From: a virus
Taxonomy: Duplodnaviria > Heunggongvirae > Uroviricota > Caudoviricetes
DNA length: 64,000 bases
IMG/VR virus record: IMGVR_UViG_3300037067_008064
Span: 64,001 to 128,000 of that record
Reading direction: 5' to 3' (one strand)
Shown: positions 9,049 to 44,948 of the stretch, in pieces
Numbering within the stretch: the stretch's first letter is position 1
Layout of the letters: every line of letters starts with the position of its first letter
Notes under the pieces: model-generated
Database searches by the model: none
Told to the model about the DNA's origin: nothing
What the model saw: only the letters and a program-made list of their open reading frames with translations
Made by a program: the position numbers and the translations under genes

Positions 9049-9317
9049 GCAAAATATTCACCTTCATAAGCCATCCAATTAAGTTTTGCGAGTTCAATGC
9101 AATCCTCATCTGTTATACCTTTTTCAATAGCATCTTCAATAGCAATTGAATAAATAATATCATGTTCTGCACATTGAATAACACGATTTGTGTATTTTGA
9201 TAATATTTGAAGTCCTACTAAAGCATGATCACATTTCATTTTATGAATCTCAGATTCATATTCTTCAAATATTTTAAGAATTTCTTCTTTACGTTTTTCA
9301 ATTTCTTTCCAATCCAT
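9036..9317 (-). CDS. Hypothetical protein
   Basis: ORF in operon. Confidence 0.55.
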   Translation of the reverse strand: MDWKEIEKRKEEILKIFEEYESEIHKMKCDHALVGLQILSKYTNRVIQCAEHDIIYSIAIEDAIEKGITDEDCIELAKLNWMAYEGEYFACFV

Positions 9318-10652: not shown

Positions 10653-11360
10653 TTAGTCATATAGTTTGCAACTTTCTGTTAGTGGAGGTATTATTAAATC
10701 TTTATCTATAAAAGCCCAGAATGGAGCTCTGCTTAATATTCTGCCATTTGTTTCTCCTTTAAATTGGTGGTCACAAAACGGAATTTCAATATATTTTAAA
10801 GAATGTATATTTTCTGAATCTTCTGCATAGAACTTAAAGCTTCTTCCACTGCCTACACCAACTACATCATCTTTTTCTCCTATTATAATAGCAACATCTC
10901 CAGTGAATTTCATTAATTCTTGTAATGCATTTCCATAGTTTCTAACATTTCCAGCAGCTGGTGCAACTAAAAGAATCTTTTTAATTTGAGCATATTTATA
11001 TGCTACCAAAGCAGTTGCACCCGCACCCGCACTAGTTCCAATAATATAAATGTTTGGATTTTTCCTAGTACAAATATATTCAGAGTATTTTAAGATAAAA
11101 TCAATGACTGTTTCTAATTGATTAACAATACTTTGTCCATATTCTTCATTGGGAAATATTATATTTCCCATGCGAACAACCGCACCTAATTGGTTTTCAA
11201 CTAAATATTCAGCTAGTTTATTATATTTATTACTATATCCATTGATATCTCCACCAAATCCAGGTAAGTTAATAATAACATTATCAGAATTTAAACTATG
11301 AATATTAATTTCAATGGCAGTTTCAGGTTTATTTTTAAGAGGGATAAATTTTGTTTCCAT
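10653..11360 (-). CDS. Alpha/beta hydrolase
   Basis: Nucleophile elbow GTSAG, GEKDDVV acid, CDH histidine. Confidence 0.85.
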   Translation of the reverse strand: METKFIPLKNKPETAIEINIHSLNSDNVIINLPGFGGDINGYSNKYNKLAEYLVENQLGAVVRMGNIIFPNEEYGQSIVNQLETVIDFILKYSEYICTRKNPNIYIIGTSAGAGATALVAYKYAQIKKILLVAPAAGNVRNYGNALQELMKFTGDVAIIIGEKDDVVGVGSGRSFKFYAEDSENIHSLKYIEIPFCDHQFKGETNGRILSRAPFWAFIDKDLIIPPLTESCKLYD

Positions 11361-19931: not shown

Positions 19932-20007
19932 GATTGGATAGCATAATAGGAAGTGCATCAGACCTCTATGGCAACTGAGAATGAAAGTTCGAACCCTTCT
20001 CCAATCA
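19932..20007 (+). tRNA. Atypical/pseudo tRNA with enlarged anticodon loop; no encoded CCA
   Basis: Acceptor GATTGGA/TCCAATC+A, D arm GCAT/GTGC, T arm GAAAG-TTCGAAC-CCTTC; anticodon stem TCAG/CTGA encloses 13 nt. Confidence 0.7.
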
Positions 20008-25290: not shown

Positions 25291-26538
25291 ATGGATTTAC
25301 CTGCTCAATTAACAGATTTGTTAAACCTTTTAAGAAAGGAAATTTCAATAAGATTATTATTGAAAAAATCTAATGTTTATTTAATTGGGGGGTGTGTGCG
25401 TGATGCTTATTTAAATAAATCAATTAAAGATGTTGATATTGTTGTTGAAGATTTAACTCTAGAAGAAATTAAACATTTATTAAGACCTTATGGCTCAATT
25501 AAAATTGTTGGAGAATCATTTGCAGTTATTAAATTTAAACCAAAAGGTTGGGATGAAGATATAGATATTGCAGTTCCAAGAGAAGATATTAAAACTGGTG
25601 AAGGTCACAAAGGATTTGAAGTTAACACAGAAGGTGTTGATATTATACAAGATTTAAGAAGAAGAGATATTACTATTAATAGTATTGCTGTTAATATTAA
25701 AACCGGAAAAATAATAGACCCATTTGATGGATTGGGCGATATTAGAAAGCATTTAATTATTGCTACTAATCCTGAAGCTTTTATAGATGACCCATTGAGA
25801 ATAATGCGTGTGATTCAATTTGCATCTAGATTTAATTTTCAAATTGATAATGGGACATTTGGTTTAATGAAACATTATGCTCATTTAATTACTAAAATAC
25901 CCGGTGAACGAATTTTAGATGAATTAAATAAAATTATTAATAAAAAAGGTAATACTGAATTAGCAATAAACTTATTAAATAAAACAGGATTAGATAAATA
26001 TATTTTTGGAAATACAATAGAAGGTATTGATCAGCAAGATTTAAATAATTTAGATATGATATCTTTTTATTATCTATTAGGATTATTATCAAATCAAAAT
26101 CCTGCTAAACTTTATAAAGGAAAATTAAGAGGAGAATTTGATATAGCAAAGGCTATAGAAAATTTAGGAAAGTTATTATCAACATTCACACATTATGATT
26201 ATTATATACAAAACGAAAATAAAAACGAAGCAAATTTAAAATATAATGTATTAATTTCTATAAATGAATCTCCTTTAATTAAGCATTCTGTAATTTTACC
26301 AGATAAAATAAAGAATATTTTAAAGGAAATGAATAAAAAAGAAATTCCTTCATCATTAAAAGATTTAAGTATTAATGGTGATGATATAATGGATTTTCTT
26401 GAAATTAAAACTCCAAACATAGTTGTAGGTAAAATAATAAAGAGATTAGCAACTGATGCTTTAATGAAAAAATATAATTGGAAAAATAAAATTAAATCAC
26501 TAGAATATTTAGAATCAATAATTAAAGAAATAATATAA
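25291..26538 (+). CDS. cca: CCA-adding tRNA nucleotidyltransferase (class II / poly(A) polymerase family)
   Basis: YLIGGCVRD, DVD, DLRRRDITINSIA, DDPLRIMR. Confidence 0.9.
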   Translation: MDLPAQLTDLLNLLRKEISIRLLLKKSNVYLIGGCVRDAYLNKSIKDVDIVVEDLTLEEIKHLLRPYGSIKIVGESFAVIKFKPKGWDEDIDIAVPREDIKTGEGHKGFEVNTEGVDIIQDLRRRDITINSIAVNIKTGKIIDPFDGLGDIRKHLIIATNPEAFIDDPLRIMRVIQFASRFNFQIDNGTFGLMKHYAHLITKIPGERILDELNKIINKKGNTELAINLLNKTGLDKYIFGNTIEGIDQQDLNNLDMISFYYLLGLLSNQNPAKLYKGKLRGEFDIAKAIENLGKLLSTFTHYDYYIQNENKNEANLKYNVLISINESPLIKHSVILPDKIKNILKEMNKKEIPSSLKDLSINGDDIMDFLEIKTPNIVVGKIIKRLATDALMKKYNWKNKIKSLEYLESIIKEII

Positions 26539-38469: not shown

Positions 38470-39075
38470 TTAACCAAATGTTAATTCTCCTAATACCACT
38501 AATTGAAGCCAAATATCAGCATCTTCTACATCATATTCTTCTAATTTAAGATTAGAATAGTTATTTGGATATTGTTCTTTAAATAAACGTGTTCCTTTTT
38601 TAATTGATGCTGTATTAATATATCCTAAAATTTCATTTTCATCTTCAGCATCTCTAATAGGAATAGATTCACCCGCTTGTACTGCTAAAAATATTCTATC
38701 AACCGTTGGTGTACCGCGTGTTCCATATTTTCTATATATTTCACCGGCGTCATGACCAAGGTAATACCAATAATTAGAACCACCTTCAAATGCTGTTACT
38801 AAAAGATCATTTATATCTTCATCACTTATAGACCAAAATGATGATTTAGTTTCATTTATTTTTTTTGCTTTCATTTCTTCTTTATCTTTTTTTGTTGGTT
38901 TATAGTATCTAAAAGTTAATGCTTTTTTTCCATTAATAGTTGGTACTCCGTGTTCATCTTTTCCAAATCTTTTAATTTTAATTTTCTTATTTTTCCATTT
39001 TCCCATTAAAACAGTATCACCAACTTTAATTGGTAATACTAATTTTTCATCTAATGATTCAGAAACAAGTTTCAT
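38470..39075 (-). CDS. Two-module protein, each module starting with a tag (MKLVSESLDE; internal MKAKKINE)
   Basis: Internal copy of the N-terminal motif near residue 68. Confidence 0.7.
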   Translation of the reverse strand: MKLVSESLDEKLVLPIKVGDTVLMGKWKNKKIKIKRFGKDEHGVPTINGKKALTFRYYKPTKKDKEEMKAKKINETKSSFWSISDEDINDLLVTAFEGGSNYWYYLGHDAGEIYRKYGTRGTPTVDRIFLAVQAGESIPIRDAEDENEILGYINTASIKKGTRLFKEQYPNNYSNLKLEEYDVEDADIWLQLVVLGELTFG

Positions 39076-39929
39076 TACATACCAATTAAATTTAAAAGTT
39101 CATTATATAAATAATCTGGGTCGTCATCATATCTTCCATCTTGCCAATCCATTACCAACTTTGCAAATTCATGATGGTTATCTTCATTAATACCGGATTT
39201 TTTAGCTGCTTGTAAAGCAACTTGTGGAACACTAAACCATGTGCCCATTTCTTGAAGCATATCGTATAATGTAGTTCCTTGATTAAATCCTTCATTTAAT
39301 TTACCAAAATCAATTTGTTTAAATGCTTCAATTTTACAAGCTGTATATTTTTGATCTTTTTTTAAATGTTTCTTTCCATATTCTCTAGCTTCGCCAGCTT
39401 TTTCAAATCCTCCAACTACATTTGTTAAATCCCACCCACCAGCATTAGGTAATTTCTTTTCAAAATAAACTACATAAGGACCTTTAAGTTTTTTAACTTT
39501 AGCTTTTAAAGATTCTTCTACCTTAGTTTTTTCTTCCTTTGGTTCTTCTTCTTTTTCTTTAATAGCTTTCTTTGGTTCTTTTTTAATAGCTTTTGCTTCT
39601 ACTTTAGGCAGTGTTTCTTTAACCTTTGGTGTGGTTTTAGCTTCTACTTTAATGCTTCCAGATTTTGATTTAATTTCTGGTTTAAAATCAGATGCACCTT
39701 TAGTTGAATATCCTGGTTCAAATTTAGCTGTACCAAGTCTCATTTCAACTTTAACTTCTACTTTTCCTTTTTGATATTCTGATTTTAACCATTTATAAGT
39801 TTTTTGATTTGTATCTGGTATAATCATTCCTTCATCTGGAACTTTAGCTGTTGGATTATCTTTCATTTCAGCTTCTTCATTTAGTTTTTCTAAATAATCA
39901 CTCATTTTAAAATCACCGGATGTTTTCAT
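39075..39929 (-). CDS. Lys/Glu-rich multi-module protein with LNE motifs
   Basis: EKLNEE, VEESL, KLNEGF. Confidence 0.6.
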   Translation of the reverse strand: MKTSGDFKMSDYLEKLNEEAEMKDNPTAKVPDEGMIIPDTNQKTYKWLKSEYQKGKVEVKVEMRLGTAKFEPGYSTKGASDFKPEIKSKSGSIKVEAKTTPKVKETLPKVEAKAIKKEPKKAIKEKEEEPKEEKTKVEESLKAKVKKLKGPYVVYFEKKLPNAGGWDLTNVVGGFEKAGEAREYGKKHLKKDQKYTACKIEAFKQIDFGKLNEGFNQGTTLYDMLQEMGTWFSVPQVALQAAKKSGINEDNHHEFAKLVMDWQDGRYDDDPDYLYNELLNLIGM

Positions 39930-39954: not shown

Positions 39955-40566
39955 TTAAGTAAAAAAAATTCTTTTTGCATTTTGATTACCTTTTAAAGAA
40001 ATACGTAATTTTCTAATATGTTCTTCTGAAAACTTTTTTCCTTTATGAGATTCACTATTTTTTCTTTTACTTTCTTCAGAAAAACAATTCTTTAATCCTT
40101 TATTCCAGGGAATATTATTTTTTAAAGTATTGCTTATCTTTTCTCTTGTTTCTTTTGATATTTTTTTACCTTCATTTCCTTTTTTAATTTTTAATTTAGT
40201 TTCTTCAGAATGAGGTTCACGTTTAACTCCTTTATGAGAATTACTCATTTTTCTTTTACTTTCTTCAGATACACTTCCTTTAAATTTATTACCACCTTTG
40301 GGACTTATATTATAACCATTAGGATATAAAGTATTAAACTGATTTATATATTTTTCTTGAGCTAAAAATGCTTCTTCTCTATTATTAAAATGTTCTAAAA
40401 TTTCTCTTTTAAAATTTGATTTACCATATTTCTTAATAGCATGTTGAAAATAAGGTCTGCCGCTCCCTAAATACCCATCATTTAAATTATTTGTTGAATG
40501 ATCACCAATATATTGGTTTCCATTAATTAAATTTGTTGTTATATAAACATAGTGAAATTGTTTCAT
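39955..40566 (-). mobile_element. Free-standing GIY-YIG homing endonuclease (NUMOD3 repeats)
   Basis: [21 protein letters not shown]...GYLGSG; [14 protein letters not shown] repeats. Confidence 0.9.
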
Positions 40567-40580
40567 TATTTATTATTTTT

Positions 40581-40605
40581 AAAAACACCCACTATCGTAG
40601 GGTGT
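40581..40605 (-). terminator. Hairpin plus U-tract closing the tmRNA coding piece
   Basis: acaccc-tacgatagt-gggtgttttt on - strand. Confidence 0.7.
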
Positions 40606-40810
40606 GCACGTGAAACTGAGTGCTTCTTAAGCAGCCATTTTCATTTCATAACTATTTTCGCCAGTTATTGCGTTATTAGGATATTCTCTATTACTTAATC
40701 AATGCTGTCAAAATCCTGTCAGCCCCTAAATTTTAATAGTAGTGGAGCTGGGGAGATTCGAACTCCCGTCCAAACATCTATACCTCATAAATAGACTTAC
40801 ATTGTAAGTC
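40581..40810 (-). ncRNA. ssrA: tmRNA, circularly permuted (two-piece) arrangement, tag GENSYEMKMAA
   Basis: - strand order: T arm GGGAG-TTCGAAT-CTCCC and 3' acceptor CAGCTCC-A (ends 40743), 16-nt spacer, 5' end GGGGCTGACAGGATTTTGAC (starts 40726), AATAACT-GGC resume site, tag ORF 40662-40627; G3.U70 pair present. Confidence 0.9.
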
Positions 40811-40814
40811 ACTC

Positions 40815-41102
40815 CTAATCTCTTTTTGGAAAATAATAACTATTTCCATATTTTTCTTTCATAAAATTATCAATTGCATGAGACCATTTTAAATACTGAT
40901 TGGCTTTTTCAATAATAATTTCATAAGCTATTTTAATATTATCATCTGGAAATAAATTTAAATGATATGTATATTTACTATTATGTATATTCTCATATAT
41001 TTTAATTAAATCCAAGTATCTATATCTATATTTTTTAACTAAAGAAATTAATCTTTTTTTACTTTTTTTATCTAAACATTTAAAATCCGGTTTAGTTTTC
41101 AT
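40815..41102 (-). CDS. Hypothetical protein
   Basis: ORF behind variant TTTAACA box. Confidence 0.5.
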   Translation of the reverse strand: MKTKPDFKCLDKKSKKRLISLVKKYRYRYLDLIKIYENIHNSKYTYHLNLFPDDNIKIAYEIIIEKANQYLKWSHAIDNFMKEKYGNSYYFPKRD

Positions 41103-41145
41103 ATTTATAATATAATATTCTAGAGTGCAAAATAACTAAAAATTT

Positions 41146-43645: not shown

Positions 43646-44245
43646 TTATGTTTTATTAAAACGCATAAGAATATTCTTAAGTGTTTCTTCTGTAAAAATA
43701 TAAAATTTACAATTATTTTTCTGAGCCCAAGCATTAATAGCAGCAAATTTAGCTTCATTTGATAAATATTCTTTTGCTTTATTAACAAATTGTCTTTGTT
43801 CTCTTAATGGTGCATCTTTAACTGGAGGAACTGGTTTTTTTAATTTATGACTTGGTTTTATTTCTATAAATATTTTTTCTAATACACCATTATTATTTTC
43901 TTGTTCAATCCAAAAATCAACATTATAATATTTTATTTTCCAATTTACTGGGTTATTTGGGTTTAACCCTAATTTTTGATTTTCTTCCAACTTAGCTGTT
44001 CTATCATAGTATGGAACCCTAATTGGTTCCGCACTCCATCTTTTAATAGATGTACTGTAATCACAATATTTACAAAATGCAAATTCCCAACTTGACCTAT
44101 AAATAATAAGGTCTATTGGTCCAACATATTTACTTGGATTTTCTGGTTTATAATATCCTTGTTTAGACCACGATGTTCCACCTTCAGCTTTTGTTCCAGT
44201 TAAATTAGGTTTATGCCATTTTTTATATGCAGAATTATAATCCAT
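43646..44245 (-). CDS. Head completion nuclease, T4 gp4-like (TnsA fold)
   Basis: YRSSWE, WSAEPIRVPY, YNVDFWI, IEIKP. Confidence 0.9.
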   Translation of the reverse strand: MDYNSAYKKWHKPNLTGTKAEGGTSWSKQGYYKPENPSKYVGPIDLIIYRSSWEFAFCKYCDYSTSIKRWSAEPIRVPYYDRTAKLEENQKLGLNPNNPVNWKIKYYNVDFWIEQENNNGVLEKIFIEIKPSHKLKKPVPPVKDAPLREQRQFVNKAKEYLSNEAKFAAINAWAQKNNCKFYIFTEETLKNILMRFNKT

Positions 44246-44948
44246 TTATTTTATTATTTTTACAATTATTTCCATGACACCTGTTATATATATTTAAAGG
44301 AATTACTTTATTACAATAAATACATTTAATTCTTGAATTTATTGAACCTATACTTATTTTATTTTTAACTTCTTCAGTTTTTTTAATTCCTTTTTTACCA
44401 TTACTTATTTTAATTTTAGTTTGAATTGATTGTATTCTACCTAAATTTTTATTTGTATTTCCATTTATATAATTTTTTCTTGATTCTTCTGTACATATTT
44501 TTCCTTTGTTACTTATAGATATTTTTTCGCGTGTTTCTTTAGTGACAATATGATTTTTTAAAGTTTTAGATATTTTTTCATTCCATTCTTTAGTATGTTT
44601 TATATTTTTTAATTTAGTTCTAGTTTCATCAGAAATTGGAGTATGTTTAATTATTTTAATTACATAATCATAATCTTTTGCTGAAATTTCATATTTACGT
44701 TTATTCATAAAAGACATTAAATGAAACGCATGATTTATTTTTTTATTTCCTTTATAAATTTTTGTTAATAATTTATGTGCTATAAAATGTTCTTTTGCTG
44801 TCAATAAAACTAAATTTTCTTTTTCATTAGTACCATTTAAACATTTAGGAATAATATGATGTTTTTCATAATAATATTTTTTACTCTTTTTTCTTGATTG
44901 TATTTTAGCATTATTTATTAATTTTTCATATGTTTTTTGATAATCCAT
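44235..44948 (-). mobile_element. Free-standing HNH homing endonuclease
   Basis: EKHHIIPKCLNGTNEKENLVLLTAKEHFIAHKLL; paralog of 32628..33194. Confidence 0.9.

Follow-up and report, generated by a model that had tools for sequence, protein, structure and literature searches.

A genuine circularly permuted (two-piece) transfer-messenger RNA (tmRNA) gene of a giant phage lies on the minus strand of the 64,000-nt stretch analysed here (positions 64,001 to 128,000 of IMG/VR virus record IMGVR_UViG_3300037067_008064; the window). Coordinates below are those of the window unless another record is named; in the window this focal gene occupies 40581 to ~40819. From its sequence and conserved folding, we put the probability that it works as a functional two-piece tmRNA (ssrA) using host SmpB at about three in four. 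It is a member of a compact, phage-borne class of permuted tmRNAs that bear Bacteroidota-type signatures.

The focal gene is annotated by standard tools. ARAGORN reported a single tmRNA, both for the window and for the 316-kb viral contig as a whole, flagged it as permuted and read its tag as GENSYEMKMAA. The Rfam 15 family RF04321 (tmRNA_permuted) matched 40627–40795 across its full model (positions 1–213) with 63.4 bits (E = 6.6e-10; gathering score 47). Both results bear out the compact permuted tmRNA proposed in an earlier note on this DNA (the original prediction). In gene order, the tRNA-like 3' half (40778–40743) comes first, followed by a spacer (40742–40727) and the 5' half from 40726. 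The claim that no second 3' end exists downstream also stood, as neither the 3.7 kb downstream nor the rest of the window contains another T loop with an acceptor 3' strand, and no one-piece tmRNA (RF00023) scored over the cut-off in the 316-kb contig. The junction at 40727–40742, singled out earlier for checking, is crossed by a 151-nt contig from a different sample (run X4) that equals 40632–40782 with zero mismatches. The stretch itself was found in a groundwater metagenome, its likely source, and landfill metagenomes from other studies contain 65–93% of its sampled words; among the matches listed for sequencing samples with the stretch there is no RNA sample.

The gene has the following parts, listed in the direction of transcription.

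40813–40819, minus strand: 3'-side strand of helix P2d (AUUAGGA), the 5' end of the acceptor piece; pairs with 40675–40681, 7/7 Watson–Crick
40794–40810, minus strand: hairpin Hp (GACUUAC-AAU-GUAAGUC), a 7-bp perfect stem in a three-way junction with P2d and P2c
40790–40795, minus strand: 3'-side strand of helix P2c (UCUAUU); pairs with 40687–40692, 6/6
40773–40778, minus strand: 3'-side strand of helix P2a (GAUGUU), just 5' of UGGAC and the T arm; bracketed by ARAGORN
40767–40751, minus strand: T arm (GGGAG/UUCGAAU/CUCCC), from ARAGORN and Rfam
40750–40744, minus strand: acceptor 3' strand (CAGCUCC), followed by discriminator A 40743, the 3' end of the acceptor piece
40727–40742, minus strand: 16-nt spacer between the discriminator and G1, CUACUAUUAAAAUUUA, beginning CUA
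40701–40726, minus strand: tRNA-like 5' half, with GGGGCUG (G1 = 40726), a D-loop analogue ending UUUGAC, and P2a AGCAUU
40692–40687 and 40681–40675, minus strand: 5'-side strands of P2c (AAUAGA) and P2d (UCCUAAU), leaving 12 nt to the resume codon
40668–40663 and 40653–40648, minus strand: resume hairpin (AUAACU/AGUUAU), a perfect 6 bp with the resume codon in its loop
40627–40662, minus strand: tag frame GGC..UAA, GENSYEMKMAA-stop, with resume GGC at 40662–40660 (ARAGORN)
40621–40633, minus strand: P5-like hairpin (UGCUU-AAG-AAGCA), containing the stop codon
40581–40605, minus strand: intrinsic terminator (ACACCC-loop-GGGUGU and U-run), likely the 3' end of the coding piece

The structural core described in the original prediction is present on the minus strand: the 7-bp acceptor stem, formed by GGGGCUG (40726–40720) with CAGCUCC and including G3.U70; helix 2 (P2a), formed by AGCAUU (40706–40701) with GAUGUU (6/6 pairs, two G.U); and the tag frame at 40662–40627, followed by the terminator at 40605–40581. 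Its view of the unit was correct as to compactness but not as to the 5' limit, which lies at ~40819 instead of 40810 because a conserved 5' helix strand is located at 40819–40813. The absence of pseudoknots 2–4 (PK2–4) was upheld, but pseudoknot 1 (PK1), which had not been listed as missing, is absent too. No PK1 was found between helix 2 and the resume codon, where it cannot be present because P2c and the resume codon are just 24 nt apart, and P2d takes up 7 of these. The PK1 site appears to be taken by the three-way junction formed from the 5' extension of the acceptor piece. A post-tag pseudoknot was considered for the focal gene and rejected: the candidate stem has just 3 bp (CGU/ACG) and is unsupported, and the terminator hairpin stands at that place.

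A neighbouring 591-amino-acid open reading frame (ORF) encodes a T4-type portal protein. Two other viral contigs also have a permuted tmRNA at this position, flanked by the portal gene and a homologue of window gene 39075–39929. These contigs, L034 (a 42-kb fragment, 10% complete by CheckV) and L126, have portals 52–70% identical to the focal one at the amino acid level. A metagenome scan for further portal relatives added L265 alone, which is the same contig as L126, and portal relatives at 43–51% identity whose contigs extend past the portal had no tmRNA in the available flank. The original prediction had pictured an independent permutation and minimisation event in this phage; the same-slot genes of L034 and L126, and a large class elsewhere, speak against it.

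Nine helices can be drawn in the focal gene, and eight of them (all but the resume hairpin) recur in L034 and L126 in the same order with different sequences. In the RNAalifold analysis of the three sequences, the acceptor stem, T arm, P5 and terminator all contain compensatory changes, among them four of the five T-stem pairs, acceptor pair 5:68, a U-A to C-G change in P5 and three pairs of the terminator; a terminator scan found two terminators where 0.4 were expected. P2a has the counterparts UAUAUA/UAUAUA in L034 and AUAUGUA/UGCAUAU in L126. For P2c, the RF04321 alignment pairs UCUAU with AUAGA, and both L034 and L126 have homologous helices (7/8 bp). P2d was recovered by unconstrained minimum-free-energy (MFE) folding and by cofolding, its equivalents in L034 and L126 are 5-bp helices, and its strand at 40813–40819 includes the stop codon (40815–40817) with which the upstream ORF ends. 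Counterparts of Hp with different sequences stand at the same place in L034 (5 bp) and L126 (4 bp), and the Rfam cyano_tmRNA model aligns Hp to its own 5' hairpin.

The wider class was explored with a loose pattern (T loop, acceptor 3' strand, short spacer and GGGGNUGA), which is present in at least 118 viral contigs; a strict pattern for close relatives had zero matches in viral contigs. ARAGORN, run on the collected loci, returned 103 tmRNAs, nearly all permuted among the matches listed. Two groups emerged. Genes of the first are alphaproteobacterial-like, with Ala-start tags and a resume codon 80–110 nt from the 5' end. Those of the second, compact group have 56–64 nt to the resume codon, spacers of 15–21 nt that start CUA or CAA, and Gly-start tags; more than 30 other viral contigs have similar compact permuted tmRNAs among the matches listed. 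Compact tags include GEQVE[ML]AMAA (the GEQ type) in about 27 loci, again among the matches listed, as well as EHVEMAMAA, GNTSYVMDYTGIAA, GTKNVIDYSCVA and GNTSY... The focal gene has a 16-nt spacer beginning CUA, 64 nt to its GGC resume codon, UUUGAC and the P2a–P2c–P2d arrangement.

The compact fold was derived from 28 genes with RNAalifold and contains the acceptor stem, T arm, P2a, P2c, P2d, resume hairpin and P5, and no PK1. For 16 of its 37 predicted pairs, one or more sequences carry a double compensatory change, and covariation extends to P2a (where it is strong), P2c, P2d (alignment A3 pair 11:135: CG15/UA7/AU6), P5 (CG12/UA12) and the resume hairpin. This last hairpin (UAACU/AGUUG; A3 columns 148–166) is conserved in the compact family. 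A covariance model (R1) built from the compact genes of 28 viral contigs, with the focal gene excluded, scored the focal gene at 86.9 bits (E = 7e-16, model positions 1–189), second of 41 sources, with one non-training sequence higher; Ala-start permuted genes mostly scored 30–60 bits, with a best of 71.9. Within the class, GEQ-type genes have a covarying H-type pseudoknot after the tag, where the focal gene has its terminator hairpin, and an extra hairpin between P2d and P2c is limited to the subclass of the focal gene, L034 and L126.

A cultured representative is the Maribacter phage Panino (PP540027; flavobacterial host), whose permuted tmRNA scores 63.9 bits with RF04321, has a resume hairpin and shares with the focal gene a 37-nt stretch spanning the T arm at 94.6% identity. 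In blastn searches of ~50,000 phage records, the focal and Panino genes matched Panino alone, the GEQ-type and L034-type genes had no match, and no cultured isolate of the compact type besides Panino was found. Cellulophaga phage phi4:1, given as "Permuted" in Table S1 of PMC9004378, was tried as a cultured example and left unused, its genome NC_021788 having 15.6 bits with RF04321 and no R1 match.

Two members of the collection stand out for other features. Besides its compact permuted tmRNA (tag GNTSYVMDYTGIAA), the ~99-kb viral contig L018 encodes a RAGATH-9 RNA (133.7 bits; 9102–9263, minus strand) and a Hatchet ribozyme (84.3 bits; 10692–10809, minus strand), both within 3 kb of the tmRNA. 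The GEQ-type gene L086 (8518–8702, minus strand) scores 156 bits with R1; its ARAGORN tag is atypical (AATGCSFFSILISVYYNIRI) and the frame at the usual position lacks the family tag, so that in L086 the tag may have diverged or been lost.

The focal tag joins a host-like start (GEN.Y) to the ending EM(K/R)MAA of its phage group. The frames of the syntenic relatives are intact and encode GENKTEMAMAA (L034) and GVQTEMAMAA (L126), and ARAGORN read GNNAEMRMAA in LR756500, a related huge phage with a one-piece tmRNA, and DDEIDFRMAA in the one-piece gene of the Prevotella megaphage Lak-A2. The original prediction had called the tag divergent and altered and had remarked on the missing CCA. Neither trait proved special: EM(K/R)MAA-type endings are normal in the class and also occur in the one-piece tmRNA of LR756500, and a missing CCA is normal for Bacteroidota-type tmRNA genes. 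Both are therefore lineage traits. The added idea that the tag retunes protease routing of rescued proteins is speculation. Among GEQ family tags, the Ala codons vary synonymously and the stop is TAA, TAG or TGA at a fixed position, a pattern that fits a translated tag frame. In the EHVEMAMAA type, a compensatory change links the pre-resume base to codon 3 of the GEQVE tag (Gln to His).

Among available phage records, the focal portal is nearest to those of the Prevotella Lak megaphages (43% identity) and the huge phages LR7565xx, which belong to the Mahaphage clade and are predicted to infect Bacteroidetes (PMC7162821). Shine–Dalgarno motifs precede 5 of the 239 ORFs of at least 150 amino acids on contig G000, against 19 in a control window, and leaders are A-rich. 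A near-lack of Shine–Dalgarno motifs fits Bacteroidota. A Bacteroidota host is therefore likely for the focal phage, Lak-like by its portal, given the tmRNA characters, the portal affinity and the scarce Shine–Dalgarno motifs. The phage is not marine, since its contig DNA recurs in groundwater and landfill metagenomes, though its closest tmRNA relatives are from marine samples. No permuted tmRNA was matched in Lak-A2, Lak-B4 or LR756500. Lak-A2 (MK250019.1 142603–142997) and Lak-B4 (MK250023.1 416686–417095) have a one-piece tmRNA directly upstream of the portal gene. The tmRNA–portal linkage thus recurs on opposite sides, with the permuted tmRNA of the focal phage, L034 and L126 standing just downstream.

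The gene form is at odds with that of Bacteroidota hosts, as had been claimed. The GENNYALAA tag (GGC GAA AAY...) is almost confined to Bacteroidota genomes, and at Bacteroidota loci picked by a Gly-start tag 67 of 67 ARAGORN tmRNAs were one-piece. None of 151 evenly sampled Bacteroidota genomes had a permuted tmRNA over the cut-off, two sub-threshold permuted matches among them being ordinary one-piece genes, and R1 had no match in three Bacteroidota genomes. In agreement with the one-piece Bacteroidota form, Table S2 of PMC11915505 gives 24,380 of 24,454 genes as standard; the table also has 48 permuted entries of alpha, beta or cyano type from Bacteroidota assemblies.

In detail, the compact genes resemble the one-piece genes of Bacteroidota. 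UUUGAC rather than UUCGAC is present in 33/36 compact genes, 57/67 Bacteroidota one-piece genes and 2/62 other permuted phage genes, the last having UUCGAC in 34/62 (these counts, and those that follow for the phage genes, are among the matches listed). The first tag residue is Gly in 33/36 compact genes and, by selection, in the Bacteroidota set, and Ala in 52/62 other permuted genes. CCA is encoded in 1/36 compact, 3/67 Bacteroidota one-piece and 33/62 other permuted phage genes; 34 of the 36 compact genes lack it. UUUGAC, the Gly start and the missing CCA, together with the tag ending, favour descent from a one-piece gene and hence a separate permutation lineage, whether the ancestor was of Bacteroidota type or a phage one-piece gene; on these sequence characters the balance tilts modestly towards such a lineage. 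These characters could instead reflect adaptation to host machinery. A more specific scenario falls a little short of even odds: a further phage-borne two-piece lineage arose from a Bacteroidota-type one-piece gene, possibly within Lak-like phages, all pseudoknots were lost, and PK1 was replaced by inter-piece helices and a three-way junction.

Alternatively, the compact class may descend from the alpha- or betaproteobacterial or cyanobacterial two-piece lineage through phage capture and later adaptation to Bacteroidota, which we consider unlikely while giving it more weight than any other rival. The cyano_tmRNA model aligns the focal gene end to end, including the 5' hairpin, with 45.7 bits, the best of the lineage models; alpha and beta models scored lower and were removed as clan overlaps. 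Partial beta_tmRNA matches of 38–49 bits occur in three GEQ-type genes and L034. In addition, scoring the tRNA-like domain against two profiles (Bacteroidota one-piece versus A-tag permuted genes) does not separate the two options, with scores of +0.2 bits for the focal gene, -10 for L034, -5.7 for L126 and a compact median of +4.6, where true members score roughly +32 and -25. Against this descent, none of the lineage models (RF01849, RF01850 and RF01851) attains its gathering score (70, 84 or 50, the cyanobacterial threshold being 70), the Gly-start tag, UUUGAC and missing CCA are as in Bacteroidota one-piece genes, and the EM(K/R)MAA ending is common to the one-piece tmRNA of LR756500.

A functional two-piece tmRNA would be expected to work as follows. 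Transcription of the minus strand would begin at about 40819 or farther upstream and end at the terminator at 40605–40581. Host RNase P would cleave before G40726, and the spacer (40742–40727) would be trimmed back to A40743. CCA must be added post-transcriptionally because it is not encoded after A40743 (CUA follows directly, as the original prediction had read), and a host or phage nucleotidyltransferase would add it. The products would be an acceptor piece of ~80 nt and a coding piece of ~145 nt, joined by the acceptor stem and by P2a, P2c and P2d, with the three-way junction and its hairpin at the place of PK1. After alanine charging via G3.U70, and with host SmpB, the RNA would enter a stalled ribosome, translation would resume at GGC, and (A)GENSYEMKMAA would be appended. 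The rescue product would be a AGENSYEMKMAA-tagged protein; ribosomes would thereby be freed during infection and truncated proteins marked.

Several results weigh against this reading. A search of the contig, 78% complete, gave no SmpB (PF01668), so that function would depend on host SmpB. Sigma-70-like sites are at background (13 versus 9.0 +/- 2.5), with no promoter identified, and by eye no clear Bacteroidota-type TAnnTTTG box lies upstream of the focal gene. The RNA is without PK1 and probably without any pseudoknot. Unconstrained folding misses the acceptor stem, and the focal fold is only mildly better than those of shuffled sequences (z = -2.16). P2d on its own is not significant in this AT-rich sequence, as 745 of 5,000 shuffles (15%) reach 7 bp. 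Its support comes from positional conservation in the relatives and covariation in the wider family. The comparative fold has -30.3 kcal/mol against -37.7 for the MFE, and both constrained and unconstrained MFE folding miss the comparative structure of this AT-rich RNA. Pseudoknot reduction is probably tolerated in engineered and reduced tmRNAs.

A different role could be that of a decoy for SmpB or alanyl-tRNA synthetase, in which the tRNA-like mimic would soak up host SmpB and block host trans-translation with the tag frame unused. The lack of SmpB on the 78%-complete contig and the loss of pseudoknots would suit this role, and a phage form consisting of the tRNA-like domain only (mycobacteriophage DS6A) is reported to inhibit tmRNA (PMC4131195, PMC11915505). 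The coding half of the focal gene speaks for translation instead: three syntenic phages and the family retain the resume context, the stop and an in-frame tag with a terminal MAA, Ala codons change synonymously, stop codons interchange, and the resume hairpin and P5 are conserved. We therefore regard a decoy as quite improbable. A decaying relic, that is, a rearranged tmRNA fragment without function, is far less probable still; the RNA is strongly reduced, as a relic might be, but its compensatory changes and intact frame persist in three phages with portals just 52–70% identical, and it has its own terminator. Scrambling of a conventional gene by misassembly is effectively refuted: although the contig is a metagenomic assembly, no positive support for an artefact was found, the independent contigs L034 and L126 are arranged alike, as are dozens of other viral contigs, and both the 151-nt contig and the landfill metagenomes described above come from other samples.

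An accessory gene of possible relevance to maturation lies outside the tmRNA gene, at the position where the original prediction had placed a CCA-adding enzyme.

25291–26538, plus strand: ORF for a class II nucleotidyltransferase (PF01743 and PF12627)

The product is most like CCA-adding enzymes, which agrees with that assignment. Its best NCBIfam matches are CCA tRNA nucleotidyltransferases (136.6 bits, under the equivalog cut-offs), and by this similarity it could supply the missing CCA. The contig also carries 31 tRNAs. An additional match to the Rfam tRNA model at 19932–20007 (plus strand; 45.4 bits) has a 13-nt insertion in the anticodon loop and no ARAGORN call.

The surroundings of the focal gene differ among the syntenic phages. 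A 95-amino-acid ORF that is conserved in neither L034 nor L126 separates the portal gene from the tmRNA, and TATAAATA, the T4 late-promoter consensus, overlaps its ATG at 41102–41109 (minus strand). On the other side, a GIY-YIG/NUMOD3 homing endonuclease gene (39955–40566, minus strand) begins 15 nt past the U-run of the tmRNA terminator. It is missing at that slot in L034 and L126; L126 has homologues of it elsewhere, one of them immediately before the portal gene. Just upstream of the portal cluster are an HNH/NUMOD3 ORF (44235–44948) and an ORF for a TnsA-like endonuclease (43646–44245).

Permuted tmRNA genes are found in three bacterial lineages and in mitochondria. To our knowledge, permuted phage copies have until now been interpreted as acquired from those host lineages. 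If the proposed origin is true, the compact Bacteroidota-type class adds another permutation lineage, in phages whose likely hosts all have one-piece genes, and the one-piece tmRNAs of related huge phages would be a possible before-and-after pair for the origin of permutation. The class would also be a natural test of how far parts of tmRNA are dispensable, namely PK1, PK2–4 and the covalent link between the two domains. If active, the focal RNA would represent a minimal natural architecture for tag-encoding trans-translation, with a phage-specific degron, and a component of a giant-phage translation-maintenance kit alongside the 31 tRNAs and the CCA-adding-like enzyme.

Two-piece tmRNAs of phages are already known, and the focal gene is no one-off. 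ARAGORN classed 53 of 133 unique phage tmRNAs as permuted, mainly from aquatic phages (PMC9004378), and huge phages with tmRNAs have been published (PMC7162821). The Panino tmRNA is annotated in GenBank and treated in the Panino paper solely as a possible attachment site. A 2025 tmRNA database paper (PMC11915505) covers 79 phage sequences and assigns permuted genes to alpha, beta and cyano types, leaving the compact class undescribed. The literature searched contained no account of a compact permuted class of Bacteroidota type without PK1, and this class is apparently undescribed.

The permuted ssrA genes of OM43 phage Melnitz and the pelagimyophages (PMC9004378) are like the focal gene in being detected by ARAGORN in large phages, in that the phage form can differ from the host form, and in their presumed role in ribosome rescue and tagging. 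They differ in being of alphaproteobacterial type, with Ala-start tags, CCA often encoded, a resume codon 80–110 nt, not 64 nt, from the 5' end and, in some genes, a glutamine riboswitch, whereas the focal gene has the Bacteroidota-type compact form without PK1. The compact viral contigs and Panino share with it P2a–P2c–P2d without PK1, UUUGAC, a Gly-start tag ending (M)AA, no encoded CCA, the resume hairpin and P5; the Panino spacer is longer than the 15–21 nt of the compact class. Unlike the GEQ type, the focal gene, L034 and L126 have the extra P2d–P2c hairpin, and a terminator hairpin instead of the covarying pseudoknot.

The one-piece tmRNAs of Lak-A2, Lak-B4 and LR756500 come from a portal-related clade and have tag endings (EMRMAA in LR756500, FRMAA in Lak-A2) comparable to EMKMAA, and Bacteroidota one-piece genes share with the focal gene the tag start GEN.Y, UUUGAC and the absence of an encoded CCA. 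All of these genes are colinear and about 395–411 nt long (about 397 nt in Bacteroidota), whereas the focal gene is permuted and would give about 225 nt of mature RNA. LR756500 keeps, ahead of its resume codon and after P2, a PK1-sized stretch and Bacteroidota-type motifs for which the focal gene has no room. In the acceptor piece of the cyanobacterial two-piece tmRNA (RF01851), a 5' hairpin likewise precedes a P2 strand. The focal gene aligns to this model with large deletions, at 45.7 bits against a threshold of 70, and adds a Gly-start tag and an enclosing P2d.

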